A stretch of DNA of 38,170 bases from Selaginella moellendorffii. Its lineage: Eukaryota; Plantae; Lycopodiophyta. Every line of letters begins with the position of its first letter. Positions within the stretch are counted from its first letter, which is position 1. A program made the translations under genes and the position numbers. The DNA is taken from contig NW_003314433.1 of assembly GCF_000143415.4 (NCBI RefSeq), forward strand, positions 46,928 to 85,097. The letters are read 5' to 3'. The notes under the pieces were generated by a model. The model had not been told where the DNA came from, ran no database searches, and saw only the letters and a program-made list of their open reading frames with translations. This document shows, in pieces, positions 2,167 through 38,170 of this stretch.

Positions 2167-3613
<1,447 letters not shown>

Positions 3614-3663
3614 CACTCCGAGGTATGCTGGATCCACAAATGTTCGTGAGCTTCCCAGCTAAC

Positions 3664-3674: not shown

Positions 3675-4318
3675 CGTGGGTTTGGTGCAGACACGAAATG
3701 GTGGCGGTCACTTTTGACTGTTAAATAGCGATGCTTGTTTAGGGACGAGTGGGCACTCGTGATATCAGCAAGGACTGGCTTTTGACCCCGACTTTTCTCA
3801 AGCCAGCCGGATGAGAGCTCTGATCAAGCAAAGAAAAAAAACAAGGTGAGATTTTTTCTTCTTTCTTTCTTTCTTTTCGTTCGTTGTTGCTTCGATCAAT
3901 GCGTTTTAAGTACGTGATGGTGACTCGAGTATGTTGGACATTGCAGGCTTTTTCGCTATGCAGGTCTCTCTTTCCGTGCTCTGGAGGTAAGTACGCTCTG
4001 CGCTGCGGGCTAGCTAACTTTCCATGTGAATCGTCTCTCGTGGTTGCAGAGGGCATCTTCCCAAAGGACGTCCAGCTTGAAACTTTGTGTCGCCTTGCTC
4101 CAGCGACATGATGGGAAACTCGCAACCAAAAACTGTCCGCTTATATGGCTAGCCCGGAGGATCTGTGGCAGCCACTCGCATAAACTTCTCGGACTCGTCC
4201 GGGTAAGGCTCAAAAGCTCTTTCCTTTCTTGTCAATCGCTTCGCTTCCTTCCCGGCGCTGATCCACAGTGCTTTTGGTGCTTTTGTGTAGGTCCCGAGAA
4301 GATCTAGAAATACAAGGA

Positions 4319-4849
4319 ATGGGAACTTCTGCGAATGGTGTCGGTGGTGGTTCTGCGATTCTTCTCTGGATTTCGGTGTTGACAATCCTCCTCGGAGCTG
4401 CTGCCACTGTTGCCGCGAGGTCCACACTGGTCGGAGCAGCCACCGAAATGAAGAACGAGTACTTCCACCATCCTCCACTCGAGTTTCCAAAGCCGCCACC
4501 GTTCGAGTTCAAAGAACCTCCGTATGAGCTGCCCAAGCCTCCGCCATTCTCGTACAAGGAGCCACCGTTTGATCTTCCAAAGCCACCGCCACTCTCGTAC
4601 AATGAGCCAGAGTTTACTCTTCCAAAGCCTCCGCCATTCTCATACAAAGAGCCACCGTTCGATCTTCCAAAGCCGCCACCATTCTCGTACAAAGAGCCAC
4701 CATTGGATCTTCCCAAGCCGCCGCCAATCTCCTACAAAGAACCACCGTTCGATCTTCCAAAGCCGCCACCGTTCTCGTACAAAGAGCCACCATTGGATCT
4801 TCCCAAGCCGCCGCCAATTTCGTACGAGGCTTCATTTCACCACCACTAG
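4319..4849 (+). CDS. Secreted proline-rich cell-wall-type protein with eight 15-aa repeats (consensus LPKPPPFSYKEPPFD)
   Basis: ATG 4319; hydrophobic signal (ILLWISVLTILLGAAATVAAR); 45-nt tandem repeats with synonymous variation; stop at 4847-4849. Confidence 0.88.
   Translation: MGTSANGVGGGSAILLWISVLTILLGAAATVAARSTLVGAATEMKNEYFHHPPLEFPKPPPFEFKEPPYELPKPPPFSYKEPPFDLPKPPPLSYNEPEFTLPKPPPFSYKEPPFDLPKPPPFSYKEPPLDLPKPPPISYKEPPFDLPKPPPFSYKEPPLDLPKPPPISYEASFHHH
4484..4830 (+). repeat. 45-bp coding tandem repeat, about 8 copies
   Basis: Recurrent cttcc(a/c)aagcc(g/t/a)cc...tcgtacaaagagccacc unit. Confidence 0.9.
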
Positions 4850-10000: not shown

Positions 10001-10122
10001 TTTAGCTGCTAGTCTTCATACAACATCATCCTATTGCATTTCAAGCTGTAAGTTGCTCCATGCATTGCTCTTATGCTTTACTCTCGGTAACAATTTTCTT
10101 GGTTTGCAGATCACAAGGAGGG

Positions 10123-11667
10123 ATGACGTCCAACACCAAACCAGTGAGGCTCCCACACTACTTCACGCTGAAAAATGCCGAAGGGAACTACCTGACACTG
10201 AGTGCTGTTTTGAACTACCTCCCTTTCAACTTCTCCTCCAAGGAGAGAACCCGTCTTTCAACATATGAAGCTCTCTACAACTCCAAAGACAACTCGGATT
10301 CGATGGTGATGATCCGTGCTCCAAACAGCCGCTTCTGGAGGAGATTTTACGACAATTCTTCGCCAGGAACAATTCCGTCAGACCATGAAGAGCCCAAGGA
10401 TCCAAGCGACAAAGCTTATCATTTCCAGATCGTCGAAGCTCCCGATGCCAAGAACAAGATCGTTATCAAGTCCAGAATCGACGGTCTCGACGTTTTCCCA
10501 GCGGCCGAAGTGCAGAGCGCCGAAAGCCTTGCTCTCAACTTCCCGACTTTCTTAATGCTCAAGTCTTCGGGAGATGGTCGTTGCGGTGCAACATGGACAG
10601 CCGCGAGCTCGAGGGAGCTTTCCAGGCCACGCCACTTGTGGACGGGAACTTTATCTTCCAGAGCGTTACGGGCAAGCTCTTCTGGCGCCGGGACACTGGC
10701 AACGATAGCTGGATCATCGCAGACAGAGAAAAAGAAGCCGCTCTCAAGGATCCCCGATGCCACTTCAACGCATCCAGAGTGAGCAAGAACATGATCACCA
10801 TCCGCTGCGTCGGAGACGACTCCGACCTCTTTGTCATCCGCAGTGACAAGGACCACAAGCTCAAGGCCACCGCCACGAATGTCGACAACGCTGCGACACA
10901 CTTCATTGTCTATGAGGGATCCAGCAACAAGCACATCTTCAACGTGAAGTACCTGCTCGGGCTTGCGGAGGTGACGGATATCCGTCCTCTGATCGTCGGC
11001 CAAGGCTCGGTGGTGAACAACGGTTGGCCAGAACGCCGACCTCCAGGTTTAAGTCAGCTTCACCGAGTCCGTATCAACGAGCAACCGCTGGATGACGTCC
11101 CAGACGGTGGGACTGGAAACCAGCCTGACCGTGAGCGCTGGAATCCCCGAGATCGCCTCCGTAGAAGCCACCGTCACAGTCGGGGTGGAGAAAACCACCG
11201 AGACCGAGCTCGGAAAGGAGATGACCACCCTGCTTACGTTCCAGTCCGGCTATCTCATTAAAGACGTGCCTCCCGGAGGAGCGGCGAGAAAGTTTTCAAG
11301 CCTCAGGCTCATTCAATTTGATTCTTTTCCCCTTTCTTTCTTGCTCCAGGCCAAGGTGGCAGAGGAGTGTACCAGGGGAAAATGCAGAGTTCCCTTCACG
11401 TACTCCACCAAAGCTACTCGACTCGACGGCATTGACACGAAAGTGGAGGACGAGATCGATGGTGTTTACGAAGGTGTGTCCATTTTCAACGTCAGGGGCG
11501 TGATCAGTGGCTCGGCTCCATCCAAACCAGCCGCTGCTTCCAAACCAGCTACTGGTAGTGGTGGTCTTGTGGGTTCTGTTGTTAGCGGAACGGGAACTGT
11601 GGTTAGTGGAGTTACCAAGGGCACTGAGAAAGTCGTGGGTGGTGTTGTTGGTTCCCTGTTTGGCTGA
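10123..11667 (+). pseudogene. Amaranthin-like agglutinin (2 domains) plus aerolysin-type pore-forming domain (Hfr-2-like), disrupted
   Basis: Agglutinin motifs LPHYFTLKNAEGNYL, NSRFWRR, KLFWRR...WIIAD; aerolysin-like Ser/Thr-rich beta-hairpin (WMTSQTVGLETSLTVSAGIPEIASVEATVTVG) and CRVPFTY...DGVYEGV. Frameshifts near 10579 and 11025, in-frame TAA at 11050-11052, and a probable intron 11284-11349 with a GC donor. Confidence 0.85.
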
Positions 11668-22199: not shown

Positions 22200-24722
22200 T
22201 TATCGTTTCTTCTTGCTGCGCTCTTTGGAAGGTTTGGTAGCCTCCTCTTCAGCGTTGTGGTCGGCTTCAAGTCTCGCCAGCTGCAAATCAAACAATGCTG
22301 TTGTGAGGATTCCTTCTTGAGACACCACTTTACCTTGTGAAGGACGGGTTTAAGTTCTCTGTAGCGTGTCTTTGCCAAGTCAAATCCATCCTTCCTGAAC
22401 TCCTGATAGATGCATAGAGCATGAAGAACGAGCGAAAGAAAACCTGCGTTGTCACCTTTCCAGTGTGTTGGGTGTGATCATAAGGTGCCATTTGCCAATA
22501 CATGATCGTCCAAGAGAAAAAATCTCTCAGCGTTTCTCCAGGCTGAAAGACAAATCAATAACAAAACAGGAAGATGACTCACCAAAAGTGTTTGTTGGGA
22601 ATCAGCCAGGCCCAGCTCGGATCGATCTTTAATTTCCGTGCTTTCTGTGTCAGCTTTTTGCCTTCGCCCCTAAGAATAGCAGCTGCCTCTTCACAGTGAC
22701 TCCACTGCATCCTAGAATACAAAAGGAAACCGACAAGTTTTCTTACATCCTTCTTTTTTACTACCTCGTCATCGTCCTCTTCGTCTTTTCCTTTATTAAT
22801 CGATCCAGCATCACTGTTGTCACCATCAGTTTCGCCTTTCTCCTTACTAGCTTCAATCCACGCGCTTTGTGTTTCCTGCTTGAGACATTAGTATGAGGCT
22901 GGATGATGGCTCGATCATACTAACCTCAATAATGCTCGAAGGTCCAGCGAGGAAAGGTCGTCGTGTCACTTTTTTTTTGCCGACTTCTTTCATACCTCCA
23001 TACAGAAACAAAGTATCCTTTCCAACGACCATTCCAGCATTTATTCTTCCACAAGGCAACAACCTTCAAGCAGAACGCTCAACGTTGAGACGCATTTTCC
23101 ACATTTGGATCAACCACTTTCTTCTGCTTTGGATGCACACTTAACCACTACACAATCTCAGATTGCCATACCTTAATCTTTAGGCTCTTTGGCTTGCGAA
23201 GCTCCAAAGGATACCTGCGAGCGATGGTGTTTAGATAATTTTAAAAAAATCGACGAGATACAAACCATCTGGAAAGCATATACATCTCGATCATAAAAAC
23301 GCTGTGCAGGGAATCACCTGCAAAAGACATTAGTTTTTCCAACGCATGCATTGAAACCGTACTCATCAGCATCAACTACACCACCAAACAAGATGTGGAC
23401 AAAAATCCTGCTCTTGGCCAGGAGCCAAACCGGATTTTTTCACCTTCACAAAACACATTGAAAAACTAAAACTCCAAACGAGAATGTAAAACAAGCAAAC
23501 CTTGTCCCACTCCCAATCCGTGGATCTAACGTCCACATATCTGCGAGCACTACAGCTTTGTCGGATTGATCTTTGTCAGGGGCAGGCTCTTTGAAATAGC
23601 CACCGTACAAGAAAATCTAGAAAAGAAAAAATGTTCACAACACGCAAAACTATACTTTTAGTAGACAAATACCTCATCTAAATAAACAGCAAGCTGAGAA
23701 CCAGTTCCAGCTGAAGGCCAGGCAGCTCCAAGCTTGGGTTTTATCTCTTGCCACTGCAAAAGGAAATCAGTTTAGTTGTTAAAAAACAAGGAAGAACGAT
23801 GAGCGACAGAAACAAACCTTATAATCGTCTAAATCCAGCACTTAAAGATTATTGAAGTACCTGTGTCAAAAATTCAATACTAAACATCTACACTGCTGAA
23901 ACAGCCGACCTTTCTTCCCTCAGCGTGTCATAAAATCCACCAAATAGAATAAGTTTATGTTTCTGTGGCAAGAAAGAAAAAAAAGATTATGTTTAGAAGC
24001 GCAATACATACCAATCTATGTCCGGAACGAGCACCTGGACAGCATTTTAGTTGAAGCTGCTCCTGCCAGATATTTGTGTTTAAATCCAGTCTCCATAAAT
24101 CCTGCAAGAACTCTCTTGTAAGTCAGCTCGAAACACACCTTATAGTGATGAAACCAAATTCACCACCTACACTGCCAAAATCAAGAGAAGTCCTGGAAAA
24201 ATACATCATACCAAACATGAAGAGCCAGTTTTTCCACGCAACCGCCTGGTGAGCGCTTCTCGGTGACAGGCTTCCACTCGTTCTTCTCGATGTTGTATCG
24301 GTAGAGATCGCCATAAACGTAAAGTCTAGCATAGCAAACACGAAGGTTAAATCACCGTAGCAAAACTAATCACAAACCTTGTCACCATTGTTGTATTCAC
24401 CTCCATAGACGATCAGCGCAGTGTCCTTGACGGGATTTACAGTCACCTGAAACGCAAGGAAAGAAGAATTCTAGAGAATGTGAGCTTCCAGAGTGGAGAT
24501 TTCAATCGAGTTCTTACGCACAGAGCAATTGCATTGTGGTGAAGGAGCTGCTACATTCTCATCGCCATGAATTTCGCTCTTCTTTGCTTTCTCCTTGTGG
24601 AGTTTAGCCTGACAAGAAGGAAAACGATTGAGAGTCTTTGGCCAGAGCTTTCCTTACCAAGATCGCATCAATATCATCCTCGTCCCACACCTTCCTCTCC
24701 GCCGCCTTGGCCGTCTTGCTCG
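22200..24722 (-). pseudogene. KLHDC4: Kelch-domain protein KLHDC4-like (Kelch repeats + DUF4110) pseudogene
   Basis: KTAKAAER..EDDIDAIL, PSPQCNCS, LIVYGGEYNNGDK, YGDLYRYNIEK, PRSAHQAVAWKN, PCGRINAGMVVGKDTLFLYGGMKE, FRKDGFDLAKTRYRELKPVL; many short introns. The start Met is missing, with internal microdeletions, frameshifts and a premature stop (NNL*VLDL). Confidence 0.88.
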
Positions 24723-24764
24723 AAGAACCCTAAAACCTAAATTAACTCTTGCTTGTACTGTCCG

Positions 24765-24912
24765 CTTTGCTTCCATACGATGGCTTTGCTTCCACAGCTG
24801 GCATATGCTTTGCTTCCACTTTCTTAGTGCTTTGCTTCCACAGCTGGCATATGCTTTGCTTTTCTTCCACAGCTGGCATACTTTCTTTAGTGCTTTGCTT
24901 CCACTGCTGGCA
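24765..24912. repeat. Imperfect tandem repeat with core GCTTTGCTTCCA(CAGCTGGCATAT), about 6-7 units
   Basis: Directly visible; lies just upstream of the Roco ATG and is absent upstream of the second Roco copy. Confidence 0.85.
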
Positions 24913-24952: not shown

Positions 24953-27900
24953 ATGGAGGAGGAGCGACGAGAGTTGATCCACTGTTCCTCTGTCAAGGAG
25001 ATCAAGGAGGCTCTCGCAGCGAAGCGGGACAACAAGCGGCACTTCAATGCGATTCGGTTTTATTGTGGGGAGATCTGGAGGCTGGAGGCGCTTGACGCAT
25101 CCAAAGGTGAGTTTGTTGATGAGGTGAGTGCTACCGTTGAGGGGTTTGGAGGCACAGAGGAGGATCTGATTGGTGTGCTCAACTGGTGCATTTCAAATTC
25201 ACCCTGGTCAGACGAACCGGTTTAGACAGGGCTCTGGATGTGGGAGATGCTCCTGGTGATGGCAGTTCGTCTGCTGCTGCTGCTGCTGCTGCTCACATTG
25301 ACATTCTCAAGGCCGCTTTGGTACCACAGCTCGACATCAGATTCATCCACATCGCTGCCAGGGTCGCTTGTAGGTTGGGCATTCCCAGTGATCGAATGCA
25401 AAGGGTGGCAGAGGGCATTGCTCCTCCTCAGCAGGGACAGGATATTCGCCAGATTGAGGTGCAGAGGTTTGCAAAGCTACTGACGATGACAGAGGAATTC
25501 AAGGTCTTGAAAGAGCTACGTTTCGAATGGCGAGGCAAAGACATCCTCACACCACCTCAGGAGCTTGAGTTGGCCTTTGCTCAGCTCGACTGCTTGACAG
25601 AGCTCAGGTTGCACAGGGTTGGGAACCCAGAGACTCTCCTTAGCCAACTCCTTAGGAAAGCAGGAAACAACTTGAAACATCTCGTGTTGGAGATGAACAG
25701 GATGACAGTGGAAGGATTTGGGAAATTGAGTAGGGATCTGGCAAGTCAGGAGTGCAAGGTGGAAATTTTAGTCATCTTTGATAAGGACATTGGCAAGGAA
25801 GGGTGGGAACAGGCATTTCAGAATGGCATTTTCAATAAGCTAGTGGCGCTGGTGGCATGGTTTCCAGAGGGGGCAGGTGAGGCACTCTTCAAGGCACTCA
25901 CTAGTCCAAGCTGTTCGCTGCAAAGACTAGACCTATCTTGGGAAAGTGATGCTGGAGTGTTGCCATGGGTATGCAAGGCTCTTCAGGAGGGCACCCGCCT
26001 GTCAGTTTTAGGTTGCCGAAGTGAGGACCTGAGCAATGCAACGGGCCTGGGTGAGGCCCTGAGCAGCGCTAAGTGTGGCTTGGAGGAACTCATCGTTACT
26101 CTTTATCCAGGTGATGGTGGTGGATGGTTGGGCAGAGCGCTACAAAATCCCAATGGCAAGCTGATCAAGCTTCATCTTTATGTACTTGATCGGCTAAACG
26201 AGGGAGGAGGAATGGTCTGTGACAGCAGTCTGTGGTCAGCTCTCTCAAGTCCACATTGTAAGCTGCGCCATTTGGTAATAAGTGGTCGTAGCAGGACAGA
26301 GTTACCGTTGGAGATTGCCAAGGGCATAGAGAAGAGCCAACTGGAGCATTTGGGTATACGGGAGTGCAAAATCACGAATGGGGAGCTCTTTTGGAAAGCT
26401 ATCACCAGCTGCAAGTCTCTGAAAGCTTTGTCATGTAACTCGGAACTGCCATGGAGGTGCCTTTTGGGAAGCAGCATTGAAGACTTGGAAATACGTCAGG
26501 AAGAAATTGAAAAGCTGGAAGAGCTTTGCCAGTTGCTGGGGGATCCAAAATGCAAGGTGCGCAGATTCAGGGCTCTTCTTCTTAGAAGTGATGCACAGAA
26601 AAGACAAATTCTGGCTGCCCTGGAGGAAAACTACCAAAGCCTTGTGGAAGAGCTTGATATAGGCAATGATTCCGAAGCTTCTGAAGCATTCAAGCAGAGG
26701 TGTTCTGGTCTTTTAGAGCGGAATGCAATCTTCCAGCAGAGTGCATTCAAAGACTTTGACAACCCGTCAACAGCAAAGCTCTTCTTGTGTGGTGCTAGCA
26801 GGGTTGGAAAGACCACAATAAAAAAAAACCTCTGCCGCAGAGTGTCTTGGTTTCCATCATGTCTCCAAAGGCATGCTTCAACAGCAGGCATTGAGCTGCA
26901 ACCACTTGTCTATGCGACCACCAAACAAAAGCTGCTCATTTGCGACCTGGCTGGACAGGAAGAGTTCCATGCTTTCCACCAGTACTTTCTCAGAGGAAGT
27001 GAGAAGGATCTCTTCTTGATCGTATGCAAGGTGGAGGATGACAATTGTGACGTTTTCAAGCAGAATTTGGTTTACTGGCTGAGGTTCATCGCTTCACATC
27101 AATCAGCCTCACCCAAAAGGAAGCCCAGGGTCTTGATTGCCTTGAATTTTTTCACTCGAAAATGCAGCTATGACCCAAAGAAGGTGGTTTCTGCAATAAT
27201 CTCCGACAAAGACAAAGGCTATGGGCAAGTACTTGAGTTTGGGACAGATCCTTGTTTTAAGGTGGTGGCCACTCAAGTGAAAGATTTAAGGGGGATAAAA
27301 ACCATGTTGGGGAGTTGCTTGCACGAACTGCTGTCATCCCAGCAACAAATACCATGGGAATGTCTCGAAGCAAAGAGGAAACTGGTACAAGGTGCCAGTC
27401 AGAAGAAGGTCATACCCCTAGACAAAGTTGACGAAATCCTCTTGCCTAACAGCAGTTTCAAAAGTGAAGAAGCCTGGAAGAATGTTATTAAATTCGTCTT
27501 GCAGTTTCTACATGATTGTGGAGATGCAATTTACTTTGGCTTGGGACATGAAGAGGGTGACATTGTGTCTCAATTTGTCATCTTAGATGTCCAATGGTTT
27601 ATGAGGGATGTGGTGCAACTCTTCATACCTACAGGGAAGATCAGCAAATTCAAAAGTCAAATGGAAACACACCAAGTTGAACATCGATTGCAAGAACAAT
27701 GTGGGAACCAAGACAAAATAGTGGAGTACATTCTTGGAGTGCTCCATGAGATGGGACTGATATTGCCTTGGGATGAAACATGGGATGGGAATTGGCATAA
27801 CTTGCCCAAAAAGTTGAAAATGCCAACACTATTGCAAGAAGAATATTCACCTCCAGAATATTTATCATTGCCATCAGTGCCAATTGACACTCAAAAAAAC

Positions 27901-29313
27901 CACAACTACTGGGGCAGGAGGTTTGAATGCAAAGACAAGGACTTGAAATTGTTTCCTGCAAGTATTTTCACAAAGATCCAAGTTAAACTTCACAAATTAA
28001 GCAAGAAAGGTTTTAGGCCTGGGAATGGATGGGTGGCTTTGAAAGAGAACCTTATCGAGACAATTGTGAGAGTTGGGGGAGACACAGGCAATTGGAAAGA
28101 TAGGCAATGGGTTGATGTCATCATCTATTACCCAAAAGAGGTAGAGAATGCACCAAGGCCAGATTTGGAAAAAGAAGCTGAAGGATGGATGGAAAAAATT
28201 AGAAATTGCATTATTGGGGTATGTATGGAGGATTGCCCATCTTTGGAAATTGAAGAAAATGTGATGAGACGTGGTTATGTATGGAGAAGGATACTAAATA
28301 AGGGGGACAAATTAGAATTATGGGCTTCAGTTATTTGTCCACTAAAGGAAGTCAAATGTGAAGCAAAAGAAAGAGGTTTAGAATACTCCCACACTTGGAA
28401 TTATTCACATGAAGTAGAGGATTGGGATGTGAATAATGATTTGAAGGTCTCAGATGAGAATGCTTTGGCTAAGCTATTGATGCCCAATGAGCAAAAACAT
28501 GAACTGGTGAATAAGTTTGTTGAACTTCATGAACTCTTGAAGGACTATGACGAGGTTGGAGAAGTCACAATTCCCAAAGCATCATCAGATGTTGTTAAGT
28601 TTCCAAACATTGAAGACCCAAAACTTGATGCAATCCTCATATATATTAAGAAGATGTTTGATAAAATGGAGAACCGTTTTGACAAGTTGGATACAAAACT
28701 TAATGACATTGAAGTAAGCGTTAACGAGCTCAAGAATGGAATCAAGTTTATCATGGATAAAGTGAATGCAATCCATACAACGTGTTTTCAAGTATTATTG
28801 AAATTGGAGACAGATTGCCCAAAATATCCATATATTCTTGATGAGAATAATAGGTGGAAAAATTACAGCAAAATATTGGGAACACATGGTAGACTTCACT
28901 ATTTGTGTGAATGGCCTGAAGGAACTTCTAAAGGTCATCAAGTGAAGAGTTCTGAAGGTGTTGAATTGAATATCCCACCAAACTGGCTCGAGAAATTTGC
29001 TCCAGTACTTAAATATACATTGATCCTATTATTTATTGGGGCCAAAGTTGGAGGACATTTTGCTGGTATTGGAGAGATAGTGAATGCAATAGTGGATGAG
29101 ATCAAGGGAAGCCTCATAAGTTTTTTGGATTCATGTCTTCTCAAAAGCAAGCTAACTACAAATCCCAAAGCAGAAGATGTGCAAGAGATATTTAAGCTAG
29201 TGACAACTAAATTTGGGAAAGAAGAAAAAGAGGAGACAATCATGGAAAAATATTTTGTTCTTCATCCCATAATCTTGGAGGGAAAACAAATATGGGTCTG
29301 CAAAGGTATTTAG
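24953..29313 (+). CDS. LRR-Roc-COR (Roco) protein, TORNADO1-like, copy 1, probably intact; proposed exons 24953-25123 and 25465-29313
   Basis: 1375-codon ORF containing RI-like LRRs (CSLQRLDLSW, CGLEELIV, CKLRHLVIS), Roc GTPase (LFLCGASRVGKTT, STAGIE, CDLAGQEEFH), COR (FLHDCGDAIYF, LDVQWF), a coiled coil and a TRN1-like tail (CPKYPY, RLHYLCE, hydrophobic segment, WVC). The N-terminal exon is shared with the paralog; the intron model is inferred. Confidence 0.9.
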
Positions 29314-30480
29314 CATTTAAGTTTTTTGTTTTATCTAACAAACACCATTCTAAAGCAGATCATTAATCTATATTTTTATAAGGTGGGTTAGCAAAATGAA
29401 GGTAAATAAATATGCTTTATATAGTTATTACTATATATCTTTGGTATGATTCAGGTCTATTTTGTAGTTGAAGTTAATGAGGTAAGTTTGTATTATAGCT
29501 TTAAATTATCCTTTCCTGCTTATTTTAATGTTTCAAGTTTATTTCAGTGTTGAATATCTAATATTTTAAGTGAAGGAAAAGCTACCAAATATTTTATTTT
29601 TTATCCCATAATTTTGATGATAAAACAATATATATTTACAAAGGTATTTTATATTGAAATATATCCATGCTTTTAATTTTATCTAATAGAGGCTATATAG
29701 GGCATTTGAAGTAAATCATTAATTATATATTTTGCTCTTCATCCCATAATCCTGGATGAAAGAAAAATATGGATCTGCAAAGGTATTTAACATTTAAGAT
29801 TTTAGTTTTATCTAACAAACACCATTCTAAAGCAGATCATCAATATATATTTTTACGAGGTAGTTTGGAAAGATGAAGATAAATGAACATACTTTATATA
29901 ATTATTACTATATGTCTTTGGAATGATTGGGTTATATTTTGTAAGAAAAGTTGATGAAGTAAGTTTTACATTATTGCTCTAAAATATTATTTCACGTTTA
30001 TTCTAATGTTTGAAGTTTATTTCAGTGTTGAATTTTTAATAATCAAAGTGAAGGAAAAACTCATCAAATAATTTCATATTAATGATATTTCGATATGAAA
30101 ACAAAAATTGTGAAAGAAATTGACCATAAGACAATCATGGCCAAATATTTTAATATCCATCCTATAACCTTGGATTATAAAATAGTATGGATTTACAAAG
30201 GTATTTTACATTGAAATATATCTATGATTTTAGTTTGATTTAACAAAGACTATGTAGGGCATTTAAATAAATAATTGATTATATTGATTTTTGAGATTAT
30301 TTAGCAAAGCAATGATAAATCAAATGTCCTCTATATTGTTTTAGCTATGGCAGAATGTTATTTGTACTATGATTATGCTACATTTCCTTATATAAGTTGA
30401 TGAAGTATCTTTACATATTGCTCTAAAATAATTTTTATATTTATTCTGATGTTTCTGTATTGAATGCTTTAAAGAAAAGC
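29240..30480 (+). repeat. Degenerate tandem duplications of the Roco C-terminal coding end plus 3'UTR
   Basis: The unit atatttt...catcccataat..tgga....aaa.aaatatgg.t.tgcaaaggtattt recurs at about 29250, 29590, 29728 and 30145. Confidence 0.85.
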
Positions 30481-33400
30481 TACTAAGATGATTTCATGTT
30501 AGAGGCATTTTTTATTTTGGCATCTTTGGTAAAACAATTCTAGGAATGAAGTTAATTAAAATTAATAAACCTTTTGAGGTAATGCATTTCAAAACTAAAT
30601 ACAAGTGCTTAACTGTTATTTATCATCACATACTATAGGAGATAACTTTATATTATCTTTACCAACTTCAACTTATTCTTTAAATTAATGTTTAGCTAAA
30701 ATATGTTACAAACTACAGTTTAAAGTCTTATGAAAATTGTCATTATTCACAATTCCATTTACTTACTAAACTCTATATAGAAATTTGTTTACTCTCCTCA
30801 ATTATATATATATGTCATCCCATAAAACTAAACACTGTATTGTGCTTTAACTATTGTAAGCAATAATTTAACAAAAAAAAGTTTTTGAGTGTTTGTAGAC
30901 ACTTTTTACAAAATACAAAATATGTATTAAACACCATTTATATTTATTTTAAAAATGAAGTATAAAGATATTTTTTACTATGAAATCATTTGCAACACAT
31001 CAAGTGTTACTTTGAGAGTAGCTCTAATGAAAATGCTTTCTAAATACTTATTTTGAACATTCTAGTAAATATTCATTTTTGAAAGGTTGTTTAATTTTAA
31101 ATTGTTTTCTTTCTTGCTAGGTTCTTTACAAATATTAACTTATATTATTTATGGCACTATAATCTTCTGAATTTGGGCTTTCTAAAAGGTCATCTAACCC
31201 AATACTATTTAAAGATGCTTAATCTAAAATAACCCAAAACTTATAACTAATTGGAACAAAGGGTACATTTCTATATTTAAAACAATATTAATAATTTTTT
31301 AAGTTATTATCTTTGGTTGTTTATAATCCATCATGCTTTTTTGGAAGTTCATGCCTTCGTAAATGGAAGTTGAAAGTTGCAACTCTTCGAAGAGTCCTGC
31401 TCTTTTAACACCTTACCCCTCGAGTTGAAATTGGAGTAAACTAAACTTAATAAATATCAATCTTAACATGTGGTGTGATTTCTTTAATCAATTAATAGAG
31501 TCACACTTTAGACTTCTCTAATACCAAATATAAGTTTTTAAATTTGGACTTCATAAAAGGTTATTTAGCCATTTGGGTATCCAAAAGTGGAATTGGACAC
31601 ATAGAGCATTTAAACTAAGTACAAAGTTGATGTGGTTACAAGAACACATTTTAAAGTTAGCAAACACCCAAATTAATATCAGGGCCTATAGAGATTATGA
31701 GTGAGACTCCTTTAGATGATCCTAAAGTAAAAAAAAATTAATCATTTATAAAGATGCCAAAAGCATGGTGATGGTTGCGATCACCACCACCATAACAAAA
31801 ATGACAAGCCATAATTATAGTATACTGCTATTTACATTGCCTTGATAAGCATTTATGACATGCAAAAATTCAAAAATAAACTTTATCGAAACCTTTGCAA
31901 ACTCAACCAAGTTTATGAGCTAAATGAAGAAGTTTGGTTTAGAGATGTTTGCCTAAGCTCACTCCCAATCTTTATCTCATCCTTGTCTAGAGAACCAACA
32001 TCTCAATCATTTATTATACCTTGTAAATTGGCAAGAAAAAGCTTCAAATTATCACTAATATACTGGTTTATATGTTTTTCTCAAATTTTTGGGCTAGTAT
32101 TTAGTATTAGGTTGCTAAGATTTTATGCCAAGCTAAGTAATTTCTCAAGAGAAAGATTTAAGTGAATTTGAAATAAACTCTTTGTAGACAATAACTTACA
32201 AAAGAAAAAAGGGTAAGTCACTATATTATTTATATATGGAACTTATTAAAGAGGACCTGCTCGATAAAAAATACATTGTCCAACTTAGGGCTTTATGTAT
32301 TGATTGAGTGGAGATAGATTATCAAGCAAAGATGAACATTTGGCTAAAGCTTTGATTTATTAATGGTTTTGTTGAGATTGGGCAAAATGTTATTATAAAT
32401 TTATAGTTCATTTTGTAAGTGATTGGATTAATTTTTGTTACTCTTTACAGTTGGACAATCTCAAGAGTTTCCTCTTTTGCTTTTGAAGGAGAACTTTGTT
32501 TGTGCTTGTACAAATAAGTTAAGTAAGACAATCCAAATACAAAAGGAATCCATATGACCGCTGCCACGTGTATCAAAAAATTGTAGCTTTTCTTATAATT
32601 ATTTTTAGCTGTGCATCATTTACAAAACTTACACTCTACAAATCTCACTCGCAAGAGGTTTTTACTATATCACCAAAGTTGTTAGTAACCTTGTGTAAAA
32701 TTGATAGCTTGTCCTTAAATATCAACAATGGATTGTATTTCATTTTCATATCCAACATAGAAACATTTATGGATGCCTTGTGGTACTAAGTATTTACCAA
32801 ATGACCACTTAATTCTAGATTCAATGTTTGTATTACAAAGAAAAAAAAGCAAGAGAAGGAATATTTGGATTTTATGCTCCAAAAGTAATAAGAGTGAGAG
32901 TAGCACCTTAGAATATCTAAACCAAATAACACTTGAGATTCATTAATTGTCCTTGAAAGCCAAGATATCAACAAAAAGTAGTGATCACAAGAATAATAAA
33001 ATAAGTGGTTGCATTTGAAATGTTGGAGATAAGTTAATACTACATTCTCAAAATAAATACTATAAATAGAGAATGTTATTAGGTGACTGGAGTCTGGCAG
33101 TTACCTCAAGATGGTCGAAAACTCTCACTTTGCAACGTCGGACAAGGTGTGAAGAAAGGACTCACCATACCTCTGGGAATACCTGTAAATACCCTTCGAT
33201 CCAGGGCAAACTTCCATGGAGGAGGAGCGACGAGTGTGGATCCCCTGTTTGTCTGTCAAGGAGATCAAGGAGGCTCTCGCAGCGAAGCGGGACAACAAGC
33301 AGCACTTCAATGCGATTGTGTTTCATTGTGGGAAGATCTGGAGGCTGGAGGCGCTTGACGCATCCAAAGGTGAGTTTGTTGATGAGGTGAGTGCTACCGT

Positions 33401-34173
33401 TGAGGGGTTTGGAGGCACAGAGGAGGATCTGATTGGTGTGCTCAACTGGTGCATTTCAAATCCACCCAGTTTAGACGGGGCTCTGGATGTGGGAGATGCT
33501 CCTGGTGATGGCAGTTCGTCTGCTGCTGCTGCTGCTCACATTGACATTCTCAAGGCCGCTTTGGTACCACAGCTCGACATCAGATTCATCCAGTTCGCTG
33601 CCAGGGTCGCTTGTAGGTTGGGCATTCCCAGTGATCGAATGCAAAGGGTGGCAGAGGGCATTGCTCCTCCTCAGCAGGGACAGGATATTTGGCAGATTGA
33701 GGTTGCAGAGGTTTGCAAAGCTTCTCATGACAGAGGAATTCAAAGTCTTGAAAGTGCTACGTTTCAATTGGCAAGGAGGCAAAGACATCCTCACACCACC
33801 TCAGGAGCTTGAGTTGGCCTTTGCTCAGCTCGACTGCTTGACAGAGCTCTGGTTGTACAGGGTTGGGAACCCAGAGACTCTCCTTAGCCAACTCCTTAGG
33901 AAACCAGGAAACAACTTGAAACGTCTCCAATTGCTGGGGAACAGGATGACAGTGGAAGGATTTGGGAAATTGAGTAGGGATCTGGCAAGTCAGGAGTGCA
34001 GGGTGGAAGAGTTAGTCATCGAAGATAACCACATTGGCAAGGAAGGGTGGGAACAGGCATTTCAGAGTGGCATTTGCATTAAGCTAGTAAAACTGGTGGC
34101 AACGTTTCGAGAGGAGGCAGGTGAAGCACTCTTCAAGGCACTCACTTGTCCAAACTGTTCGCTGCAAAGACTA

Positions 34174-34871
34174 TACGGGCGCGGACCATACTTGAGCTCA
34201 CGAGTTGAAGAGTTGAGCTCACGAGTTGAGGTCAATTTTCAATTGTAATTTAGTACGAACATTATAAATTTTAAAATTTTAAGGTTATGGCGAACCTAAT
34301 AATTTAATAACTCTCTATATATTATATAGATAAAAATGTTCTAAAGAACACATTTTGTTCTAATAATTTAAATATTTACTACATGCAATGATAGGGACAT
34401 TTGTTAGAACATAAAATAAAATGTTTGAAAAAAGAGTATTCTTGTCACTTCTTTAAATTTGTACTCTATACTTTTTGGCTAGTAAATATTAGGTTTGTCA
34501 GAATTAAAAAATTATTAAATTTGAAATAAGATTCTATGTGAAACCATATAACCGTTTGAAAGGAAAAAAAATAACCGTTGATGTAAGTTTATTGCATATA
34601 AAAGAAAGACTTGGTTCTTTGTAGAATACATTCTTGAGGGGTTTGTCGTAGCATACTGTCTAGAATTTATAGATCTTCATTCACACTCTCATTCAAAAAA
34701 AGGGAAATACACCCACAAATGTCTATGGGTTCTAGTGTTGGTAATTTTAACTCTCACAATCTTTCTTCCCAGGGCTCAAGGGCTAGGAGATGCAATAACT
34801 ATCCCATTGCACAGCATAACCAAATCACACAGAGAAGGACCAGCCTAGTATCACTCCTCCGGCCTTTTTTT
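34174..34871. mobile_element. Insertion (probable DNA transposon end) in Roco copy 2
   Basis: Homology to copy 1 stops at ...CAAAGACTA|, followed by TACGGGCGCGGACC, a duplicated TTGAGCTCACGAGTTGA and AT-rich DNA; the other end is hidden by the gap. Confidence 0.55.
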
Positions 34872-34971
34872 NNNNNNNNNNNNNNNNNNNNNNNNNNNNN
34901 NNNNNNNNNNNNNNNNNNNNNNNNNNNNNNNNNNNNNNNNNNNNNNNNNNNNNNNNNNNNNNNNNNNNNNN
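34872..34971. other. Assembly gap (100 N)
   Basis: Run of N. Confidence 1.
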
Positions 34972-36639
34972 TACAAGTGATGCACAGAAGAGACAAATTC
35001 TGGCTGCCCTGGAGGAAAACTACCAAAGCCTCGTGGAAGAGCTATATCTAGGCAATGATTCCGAAGCTTCTGAAGCATTCAAGCAGAGGTGTTCTGGTCT
35101 TTTAGAGCGGAATGCAATCTTCCAGCAGAGTGCATTCAAAGACTTTGACAACCCGTCAACAGGAAAGCTCTTCTTGTGTGGTGCTAGCAGGGTTGGAAAG
35201 ACCACAATAAAAAAAAACCTCTGCCGCATTGTGCTTCAACAGCAGGCATTGAGCTGCAACCACTTGTCTATGCGACCACCAAACAAAAGCTGCTCATTTG
35301 CGACCTGGCTGGACAGGAAGAGTTCCATGCTTTCCACCAGTACTTTCTCAGAGGAAGTGAGAAGGATCTCTTCTTGATCGTATGCAAGGTGGAGGATGAC
35401 AATTGTGAGGTTTTCAAGCAGAATTTGGTTTACTGGCTGAGGTTCATCGCTTCACATCAATCAGCCTCACCCAAAAGGAAGCCCAGGGTCTTGATTGCCT
35501 TGAATTTTTTCACTCCAAAATGCAACTATGACCCAAAGGACGTGGTTTCTGCAATAATCTCTGACAAAGGCTATGGGCAAGTACTTGAGTTTGGGACAGA
35601 TCTTTGTTTTGAGGTGGTGGCCACTCGAGTGAAAGATTTAAGGGGGATAAAAACCATGTTGGGGAGTTGCTTGGAAGAACTGCTGTCAGCCCAGCAACAA
35701 ATACCACAGGAATGTCTCAAAGCAAAGAGGAAATTGGTACAAGGTGCCAGTCAGAAGAAGGTCATACCCCTAGACAAAGTTGGTGAAATCCTCTTGCCTA
35801 ACAGTAGTTTCAAAAGTGACAAATTGGAAAAATTAGGTGGAAAAATTACAGCAAAATATTGGGAACACATGGTAGACTTCACTATTTATGTGAATGGCCT
35901 GAAGGAACTTCTAAAGGTCATCAAGTGAAGAGTTCTGAAGGTGTTGAATTGAATATCCCACCAAACTGGCTCGAGAAATTTGCTCCAGTACTTAAATATA
36001 CATTGATCCTATTATTTATTGGGGCCAAAGTTGGAGGACATTTTGCTGGTATTGGAGAGATAGTGAATGCAATAGTGGATGAGATCAAGGGAAGCCTCAT
36101 AAGTTTTTTGGATTCATGTCTTCTCAAAAGCAAGCTAACTAACTATCCCAAAGCAGAAGATGTGCAAGAAATATTTAAACTAGTGACAACTAAATTTGGG
36201 AAAGAAGAAAAACATGAGATAATCATGGAAAAATATTTTGTTCTTCATCCCATAATTTTGGAGGGAAAACAAATATGGGTTTGCAAAGGTATTTAGTATT
36301 TAAGATTTTTGTTTTATCTAACAAACACCATTCTAAAGCAGATCATTAATCTATATTTTTATGAGGTGCTCTAGCAAAAAGAAGGTAAATAAATATGCTT
36401 TATATAGTTATTACTATATATCTTTGGTATGATTCAAGTATATTTTGTAGCTGAAGTTAATGAGGTAAGTTTTATAAAATTATTCTTTCCTATTTATTTT
36501 AATGTTTCAGGTTCATTTCAGTGTTGAATATTTAATATTTTAAGTGAAGGAAAAGCTACCAAATATTTTATTTTTTATCCCATAATTTGGATGATAAAAT
36601 AATATATATTTACAAAGGTATTTTATATTGAAATATATC

Positions 36640-37450
36640 TATAGCGCACCTTATCTCTCTCCCCTTAAGCCAACTGGAAAAGGGGCAATTGCTTGATGAG
36701 AGAGCCCTTAGTGGCTATTTTATCCCCATTTATCCCTCAAGGTTCCAAAGATCCACGGTGACAGTATATTTAAATCTCATCCCATGATCACATGTGTTAC
36801 ACTCACCCCCCTTCAGAGATGTCAATGTCCTCATTGACTATTGACTAGCAACCCCTACTGAGCTAAGGGGAACCAGCACCTCCATTTCCGCACTCAATCT
36901 ACCAATCCTTCCATTGACTATTGACTAGCAACCCCTACTGAGCTAAGGGGAACCAGCACCTCCATTTCCGCACTCAATCTACCAATCCTTCCATTGTATA
37001 GACCAGCTATTCCATGTGAGGCAACTAGTCATCCACCCGTACCGCAGTCCTACGGTGGATACCTTCGTCCGTGGATACTCCACACAAGAGGAAGGACATC
37101 CGCAGTCCCACGGTGGATACCTTCGTCCGTGGATACTCCACACAAGAGGAAGGACATACGCATGGATGCCCAATACGTACGATTTCAAATTTAGGGGTAG
37201 GAATATACCTTGCTCAAGGGTATATTATACTTTTAAGTAGCCACTAATCAATGAGAATCGAACCCGCGCCATTTGCTCCGATACCAACTGTAGCGCACCT
37301 TATCTCTCTCCCCTTAAGCCAACTGGAAAAGGGGCAATTGCTTGATGAGAGAGCCCTTAGTGGCTATTTTATCCCCATTTATCCCCCAAGGTTCCAAAGA
37401 TCCACGGTGACAGTATATCCAAATCTCATCCCATGATCACATGTGCTACA
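36640..37450 (-). mobile_element. Complete TRIM (miniature non-autonomous LTR retrotransposon), 811 bp
   Basis: 162-bp LTRs at 36640-36801 and 37289-37450 (TGTAGC...GCTACA); 5-bp TSD ATATC (36635-36639, 37451-37455); PBS TGGTATCGGAGC (minus, 37286-37275, tRNA-iMet type); polypurine tract on the minus strand at ~36802-36815; empty site present at ~29661 in copy 1. Confidence 0.95.
36832..37157. repeat. Internal tandem repeats of the TRIM: 2 x 80 bp (36832-36991) and 2 x 58 bp (37042-37157)
   Basis: Near-exact duplications visible directly. Confidence 0.9.
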
Positions 37451-38170
37451 ATATCCATGATTTTAGTTTTATCTAACAGAGGCTATGTAGGGCATTTAAA
37501 GTAAATCATTAATTATATATTTTACTCTTCATCCCATAATCCTGGATGAAAGAAAAATATGGATCTGCAAAGGTATTTAACATTTATGTTTTTAGTTTTA
37601 TTTAACAAACACCATTTTAAAGTAGATCATCAATATATATTTTTACGAGGTAGTTTGGAAATATGAAGATAGATGAACATACTTTATATAATTATTACTA
37701 TATGTCTTTGGAATGATTGGGGTATTTTTTTTTAAGAAAAGTTGATGAAGTAAGTTTGCATTATTGCTCTAAAATATTCTTTCATATTTATTCTAATGTT
37801 TCAAATTTATTTCAGCGTTGAATTTTTAATAATCCAAGTGAAGGAAAAACTAATCAAATGATTTCATATTAATGATATTTCAATATGAAAACTAAAATTG
37901 TGAAAGAAATTTACCAAAAGACAATTATGGCCAAATATTTTAATATCCATCCTATAACTTTGGATTATAAAATAGTATGGATTTTCAAAGGTATTTTATA
38001 TTGAAATATATCTAAGATTTTAGTTTTATTTAACAATAACTATGTAGGGCATTTAAAATAAATTATTGATTATATTGATTTTTGAGACTATTTGGCAAGG
38101 CAATGATAAATCAAATGTCCTCTATATTGTTATAGCTATGGCAGAATGTTAGTTTTACTATGATTATGCT

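Follow-up and report, generated by a model that had tools for sequence, protein, structure and literature searches.

Among the closest described systems to the genes reported here are those of brown algae, where positively selected concave sites have been noted in the LRRs of ROCO proteins and an immune role has been proposed (passages of PMC3341825 and PMC11378527, in which Selaginella is not mentioned); PMC9579050 likewise holds no Selaginella passage. In plants, one or two ROCO genes are recognized in part of PMC11378527, and PMC4104024 places these genes in flowering plants only; TRN1 is reported to be present as one or two genes and to have a role in leaf patterning (PMC4104024; PMC11378527, in part). 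For NLRs, sections of PMC8226289 set ten positions above 1.5 bits as the criterion of the highly variable class, and state that the known direct-binding NLRs are all highly variable and the indirect ones never so. The proposal in an initial annotation of this DNA that the lineage has few NLRs agrees with the approximately two given for S. moellendorffii in a portion of a 2013 review (PMC3782705), an old count; the lycophyte NLR surveys of PMC11218826 and PMC12512272 may contain higher counts.

The Selaginella moellendorffii genes considered here, two copies of which lie in the window (the whole 38,170-nt stretch of contig NW_003314433.1 that was analysed), resemble the LRR-ROCO genes of Ectocarpus and Saccharina in their LRR-Roc-COR order, their clustered expansion and the fast change of concave strand residues; for the algal proteins, recognition inside the cell has been proposed. 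Unlike the algal genes, in which each repeat is a 72-nt exon and exons are shuffled, the Selaginella LRR lies in one exon and is built of irregular ribonuclease inhibitor (RI)-type units of 19-34 residues. Its diversity takes the form of substitutions, small indels behind the strands and exchange between genes, and the two host lineages are unrelated. With TRN1 the family shares an RI-like LRR, Roc, COR, a coiled coil and a homologous C-terminal domain in the same order, whereas TRN1 forms a separate clade and retains a T-H-x-D G4 motif. Highly variable NLRs of the RPP1 and RPP13 types are similar in their periodic entropy spikes on LxxLxL strands, clustering, mosaicism and pseudogenes, but the Selaginella proteins have no NB-ARC/NACHT, TIR or N-terminal CC, their switch would be Roc-COR and their LRR is N-terminal. 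LRRK1, LRRK2 and the Roco proteins of Chlorobium and Methanosarcina have the same LRR-Roc-COR fold but are conserved single-copy genes, and the Selaginella family has neither kinase nor WD40 and a degenerate G4. Outside subscription journals, and in the portions of the literature covered, including a Marchantia pangenome study, no description of hypervariable land-plant Rocos was found. The copies of the spikemoss cluster vary sharply at exposed strand positions next to fixed structural ones, as immune receptors typically do, and likely encode candidate sensors of pathogens, similar to those proposed in brown algae and apparently undescribed in land plants, although the genome paper may report the expansion itself.

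Organization of the two copies

Both copies lie on the plus strand and both are frameshifted, contrary to the initial assumption that copy 1 is functional. By family alignment, copy 1 begins at an ATG at 24953, and its 5' frame (24953..25225), which encodes two N-terminal strands that are hypervariable across the family, runs for only 89 codons before a premature stop. The cause is a 14-nt insertion at 25206..25219 (edges approximate), apparently a local duplication, which shifts the frame and closes it at 25225. To get round the insertion, the RefSeq model places an extremely short intron in a stretch that is coding in every paralogue, and uses a frame that none of them shares. The 14 nt are missing from contigs of runs X15, X16 and X19 and from one contig of the DNA run X2; a second, short X2 contig seemingly carries them, its flank being too short to bridge the insertion. 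A start at 25396 could yield a shortened protein.

The main open frame of copy 1 (25225..29305; XP_024523220.1, 100% identical over the LRR region searched) encodes a helical region, the LRR, Roc, COR, a coiled coil and a C-terminal domain. Fifteen RI-type LRR strands occupy 25507..26676, with positions x5, x7, x8 and x9 hypervariable and x3 less so. The first core residues of strands 1-8 are encoded at 25507, 25594, 25672, 25759, 25840, 25918, 25999 and 26080, and those of strands 9-15 at 26161, 26263, 26341, 26419, 26476, 26557 and 26644. The LRR region is one continuous frame, and three RNA runs show no joint of the intron type between 25225 and 27400. Roc (26776..27114) matches Pfam PF08477 above the cut-off (E=1.9e-10), G4 lying slightly downstream; COR-A (27364..27762) matches PF16095 under the curated cut-off (E=2e-5), and by structure COR extends further. 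A predicted coiled coil and then the domain common with TRN1 follow at 28663..29305 (boundaries approximate). The annotated C-terminus ends in Asp-His because of a terminal GT-AG intron of 53 nt (29306..29358), which fits the protein models, its splice not being observed in reads, followed by a last exon at 29359..29366.

Copy 2 is a pseudogene. The N-terminus and LRR strands 1-5 (33216..34173) contain a +1 frameshift near 33702; the LRR piece is 97% identical to that of P0010, a member located on another scaffold. Unrelated AT-rich sequence (34174..34971, including a 100-N assembly gap at 34872-34971) then replaces repeats 6-13. The last repeats, Roc, the start of COR, the C-terminus, the terminal intron and the last exon follow at 34972..36349, with a 31-nt deletion in Roc near 35229 and one of about 1.4 kb in COR near 35819.

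Domain composition and predicted fold

PF08477 was matched in 25 of 26 aligned relatives, the remaining one being a fragment. The profile of these relatives retrieved ribonuclease inhibitor (E=1e-25) and NLRP LRRs, together with Methanosarcina Roco2 (E=1.5e-11) and LRRK2 (E=1e-9). The predicted models gave the same division, the LRR resembling RI/NLRP and the core resembling LRRK1, LRRK2 and Chlorobium Roco (Foldseek E=6e-15 to 4e-13); against the C. tepidum COR, residues 512-887 of the model gave Z 13.2 and rmsd 4.2 over 270 aligned positions. No Pfam match to NB-ARC or NACHT was obtained in copy 1 or the 26 relatives, and the P-loop domain is Roc.

The features of Roco membership found are thus a Roc domain with COR directly after it and, in the family of copy 1, intact G1, G2 and G3 (GxxxxGKT, the switch-I Thr and DxxG); a canonical G4 is absent. 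The canonical motif is T/N-H/K-x-D, its Asp specifying guanine. The family has N-F-F-T/S in its place, and the Selaginella and Adiantum relatives compared likewise lack the Asp, which weakens the 'GTPase switch' put forward initially. Such a motif would lower the prospect of a conventional GTP switch, not that of Roco descent.

In the C-terminal part, Pfam recognized no signalling domain in copy 1 or the 26 relatives. The domain homologous to that of TRN1 has conserved Cys/His residues, which could bind zinc, and a moderately hydrophobic helix; an Atlas search gave no usable match for it, and the fold searches barely covered this part.

Family size, exchange and phylogeny

At least 13 family loci, 12 annotated plus copy 2, emerged from three protein searches combined with look-ups of individual members, which supports the expanded lycophyte Roco family proposed at first. 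Seven lie on a contig of 1,658,729 bp, two on one of 315,748 bp, three (copy 2 counted) on one of 175,582 bp and one on one of 4,298 bp. The assembly contains two haplotypes, and near-identical LRR pairs occur (P0016/P0004, 99%; copy 2/P0010, see above), so that the family is probably a modest one of about seven genes per haploid genome. Full-length open models were found at seven of the 13 loci, the redundant P0016 among them, and about half are broken or partial; with both window copies broken, gene birth and death are evident in the cluster.

The members are mosaics. P0016 is 99% identical to P0004 in the LRR and 85% in COR, while against copy 1 its LRR reaches 84% but its COR and C-terminus reach 98-99%. 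Between P0017 and P0006, likeness rises from 89% in the LRR to 99% at the C-terminus. Among nine sequences with 131 informative sites, neighbouring sites were incompatible in 0.16 of cases, compared with 0.35 when all pairs are taken (permutation p=2e-4).

A search of 50% representatives returned 235 proteins at E <=0.001, and a tree was built from 42 Roc-COR rows hand-picked from a first FastTree. The family clade (support 99) sits in a larger group that also contains Adiantum proteins and three further Selaginella lineages (SH-aLRT 99); liverwort Rocos (Marchantia, Riccia, Calypogeia) form a separate group (support 97) and Ipomoea TRN1 a third (support 91). An AU test, with one TRN1 sequence under LG+G4 and the group named after the first tree was seen, rejects a grouping of the family with TRN1 (p=2e-47). 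TORNADO1 orthology was accordingly rejected, and the case for TRN1, the comparator used at first, as a direct one is weakened. At least four Roco lineages occur in Selaginella alone, including this fast-turnover cluster with its direct-binder signature, in contrast to the one or two genes of the PMC11378527 passages and the restriction to flowering plants of PMC4104024. Five other Roco pairs were inspected by eye (P0026/P0173, P0025/P0172, P0023/P0024, P0031/P0176, P0035/P0177); two Adiantum pairs have extra change near strand ends and the others little, two sequences each being too few for a pattern.

Variation in the LRR

The motifs, codon changes and aligned segments first quoted for the two window copies were all found in the sequence. 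Copy 1 (25462-25929) and copy 2 (33706-34173) were compared over 155 aligned codons, with x positions defined as x3, x5, x7, x8 and x9 of each strand. The 24 amino-acid differences fall in 15 of 25 x codons, none of 15 core codons and nine of 115 elsewhere (Fisher p=8e-9; 15/25 at x against 9/130 others), and all eight multi-nucleotide codon changes are at x positions, which bears out the claim that exposed positions differ, often by whole codons. Between them lie long runs of identity in the helical and linker parts, the longest being 72, 62 and 47 nt. The x set was partly picked after this pair had been seen, and was therefore tried on repeats 6-15, absent from the first comparison: across the family, 18 of 47 x columns there reach at least 1.5 bits against one of 201 others (p=7e-14).

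At x codons dN is 0.59 (pN 0.41) against a dS of 0.19, the latter inflated by path averaging. Background dS is 0.041 over the 717 other codons of the two copies, and the duplicated 3' non-coding flank, with 18 mismatches in 352 columns, gives a neutral yardstick of about 5%. Gene conversion can depress background dS and so inflate dN/dS; alone it cannot alternate variable and fixed codons. Within the aligned segment outside the x sites, dS (0.07) exceeds dN (0.034). The earlier statement that synonymous changes are rare is consequently misleading, the pooled dS of 0.04 being at the level of the 3' flank: the signal of the pair is a surplus of replacement at x sites. Of the 22 synonymous sites in the 30 unchanged codons of the same strands, only one differs (P=1.5e-4 under the x-site rate, 0.05 if the rate is set to 0.2), a scarcity that speaks against a local hotspot or a pasted tract of old divergence. 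The near identity claimed for the Roc core and the C-terminus holds (differences in 1/92 and 4/152 codons) but does not extend to the end of Roc and the start of COR, where 11 of 103 codons differ.

The same pattern was found across the family, represented by 11 sequences whose LRRs are distinct, isoforms being excluded along with P0016 and copy 2. Columns of at least 1.5 bits make up 32 of 72 x positions, none of 45 core positions, three of 271 other LRR positions and none of 129 in Roc. Mean diversity is 0.63 at x5 and 0.66 at x7, with peaks including x8 and x9, compared with 0.00-0.06 in the core and 0.034 in Roc. A protein-level lower bound for the family puts pN at no less than 0.28 at x against 0.03 elsewhere. 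In the six intact full-length models taken alone, at least three residues occur in 35 of 74 x columns but in only nine of 319 others, so the differences are not confined to the pseudogenised copy, and pseudogene decay was rejected as their cause. Small indels also bunch right behind the LRR strands; in all members the variable sites lie on the strands and the loops just behind them and are not scattered.

Over the whole alignment 53 of 1422 columns reach 1.5 bits and are periodic on the LxxLxL strands, as against the ten required of highly variable NLRs (PMC8226289, in part), the entropy here being that of paralogues and probable alleles of one assembly and that of the NLRs being across ecotypes. 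Ten of these columns are N-terminal, 35 in the LRR and eight downstream of it; the last eight count against a receptor reading. Four of the ten N-terminal columns are on or beside two predicted strands (8-11 and 33-38) of the P0010 model, and the variable face may therefore take in the N-terminus. In the LRR model (mean pLDDT 56.5), which is weak over its last 190 residues (pLDDT <50), variable sites coincide with predicted strands or occupy the first few residues behind them. From the alternating pattern and this predicted secondary structure, we infer that the variable residues would form one concave binding face.

Transcripts and other samples

Intron-type joints in the upstream gene, absent from the DNA run X2, established that X1, X3 and X4 (three studies) are RNA. 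Contigs of all three span LRR and Roc with a likeness of at least 80%: family members are transcribed, and which ones is not fully distinguishable. This expression was seen in runs without known pathogen treatment.

Over 25306-25720 (415 nt, four runs), 20 of the 31 variable places, among 40 of 42 variant rows, lie in the 45 bases of x codons (p=2e-14). In single contigs read by hand, strand 1 of X19 has the states of P0019, and that of X15 and X16 has Gly, Gln, Tyr and Glu at x3, x5, x7 and x9, residues that none of the 12 reference strands compared combines in this way. The X15, X16 and X19 variants may be paralogues and not alleles of copy 1. An assembly artefact was rejected, the variants recurring in other runs and scaffolds. 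A metagenome scan for the locus found none.

Interpretation

The concentration of replacements at the x positions very probably reflects diversifying selection on a binding surface, judged from sequence comparison. Given such selection, the ligand would quite probably be foreign, and there is good reason to favour a signalling receptor over a direct inhibitor. An intracellular pathogen-receptor role, suggested by the parallel with brown-algal Roco genes and highly variable NLRs, is given a probability of roughly 0.6.

In this reading the recently expanded, recombining LRR-Roc-COR cluster would supply a suite of receptors inside the cell, acting by direct contact with pathogen proteins that keep changing. 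Exposed LRR-strand residues, together with the two N-terminal strands, would form one concave binding face that has diverged far faster than neutral sites, and the selective agent would be a co-evolving microbe or pest. In other Roco proteins, release of the LRR from Roc-COR changes the nucleotide or dimer state. Ligand binding might act here in the same manner, possibly with a looser choice of nucleotide, given the missing Asp of G4, and the coiled coil and conserved C-terminal domain might relay the signal. Between neighbours, sequence exchange would homogenise Roc and the C-terminal half, and selection would maintain the differences of the LRR faces.

An arms-race protein that does not signal, either blocking or coating a foreign protein as do ribonuclease inhibitor and the immunity-related GTPases or being an effector target that escapes, would leave an identical selection signature. 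The RI type of the LRR, the degenerate G4 and the lack of a Pfam signalling domain of known type all suit such a protein, but the conservation of G1-G3, COR, the coiled coil and the C-terminal domain exceeds the needs of a plain inhibitor, and this explanation is considered unlikely. Somewhat less probable again is an endogenous conflict or self/non-self recognition, as in gametophyte compatibility or against selfish elements. Self/non-self systems also yield hypervariable binding faces, and a pathogen link was not found for the Selaginella family; tandem duplication, mosaicism and frequent pseudogenes are nevertheless closer to resistance-gene clusters than to single-locus recognition genes. 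Expression does not discriminate between the pathogen and self-recognition readings.

Relaxed constraint, local hypermutation, gene conversion or pseudogene decay might produce variation with no positive selection, and both window copies are indeed broken, surface residues are tolerant, conversion is evident and only 12 of the 24 copy-2 states were found in intact paralogues. Relaxation would nonetheless limit dN to about 0.04-0.07, far below the x-site pN of 0.41; the interleaved codons are nearly devoid of synonymous change, equally exposed helix and loop positions are near invariant (3/271), and the intact genes keep the pattern, which makes these neutral processes highly improbable. TRN1-like developmental regulators whose copies have subfunctionalised to different host partners would account for the TRN1 domain order and C-terminal domain and for the RefSeq names 'protein TORNADO 1', but hardly for a family outside the TRN1 clade with many copies lost, new residue combinations between individuals and saturating change on one face among genes 83-99% identical, which is unexpected with fixed host partners; this reading is as improbable as the neutral one.

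If the pathogen-receptor reading is correct, the brown-algal hypothesis of Roco immunity would become testable in land plants; the family would also suggest where TORNADO1 may have come from, and would exemplify in nature a kinase-less LRRK-like switch serving recognition. Domain swaps and ligand screens would be straightforward, since apart from a few dozen mapped sites the members are 83-99% identical. A broader and more speculative proposal, judged less likely than not, is that seed-free plants possess a second, NLR-independent intracellular immune system of direct binding built on Roc-COR, with a G4-degenerate switch, repeatedly expanded in lycophytes, ferns and liverworts, of which the only survivor in flowering plants would be the conserved developmental gene TORNADO1. 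Several family members carry the RefSeq label 'protein TORNADO 1', and the source name 'ROCO family protein' indicates that the genes were known to annotators.

Length variation in the LRR

At the third LRR strand of copy 1, one of the two Roco (LRR-Roc-COR) gene copies in this window, contigs from run X3, shown to be spliced RNA, and from run X19 align with a net 15-nt insertion (25684-25694), which is absent from the reference paralogues compared and is possibly a longer-loop allele. Substitutions together with small indels near the LRR strand ends were also found in two close pairs of Roco proteins from the fern Adiantum nelumboides (P0023/P0024 and P0025/P0172, two sequences each), hinting that the same process may operate there as in the Selaginella Roco family.

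Surroundings of the two Roco copies

A spliced gene on the minus strand (22579-24720) lies head to head with copy 1, its start only about 250 bp upstream, and the gap between the two is filled with short tandem repeats of 19-29 nt (24764-24912). Pieces of this gene appear to resemble a kelch-repeat protein. The numerous variants and high depth over it in the DNA run X2 suggest that this gene is also multi-copy.

The terminal intron of copy 1 ends in a NAGNAG tandem acceptor (29352-29366), which would account for annotated isoforms with or without an extra Ala ahead of the C-terminal Asp-His. Behind both copy 1 (29250-30154) and copy 2, the pseudogene paralogue (36167-38170), the last coding codons and the terminal intron recur as a degenerate unit roughly 477 bp long. 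A small element (36639-37450) resembling a miniature LTR retrotransposon has inserted into this repeat behind copy 2 but not behind copy 1, with 163-bp direct terminal repeats that are 97% alike and with 80-bp and 58-bp tandem repeats inside.

Other genes in the window

Overlapping open frames on the plus strand (10006-11667) look, judging by eye, like a lectin fused to an aerolysin-like domain; their separate pieces gave zero Pfam matches at E 0.01. Near the start of the window lie a PPR gene (3-1979) and pieces of a class III-type peroxidase (2167-3658), both on the minus strand, and a proline-rich repeat protein on the plus strand (4262-4849).
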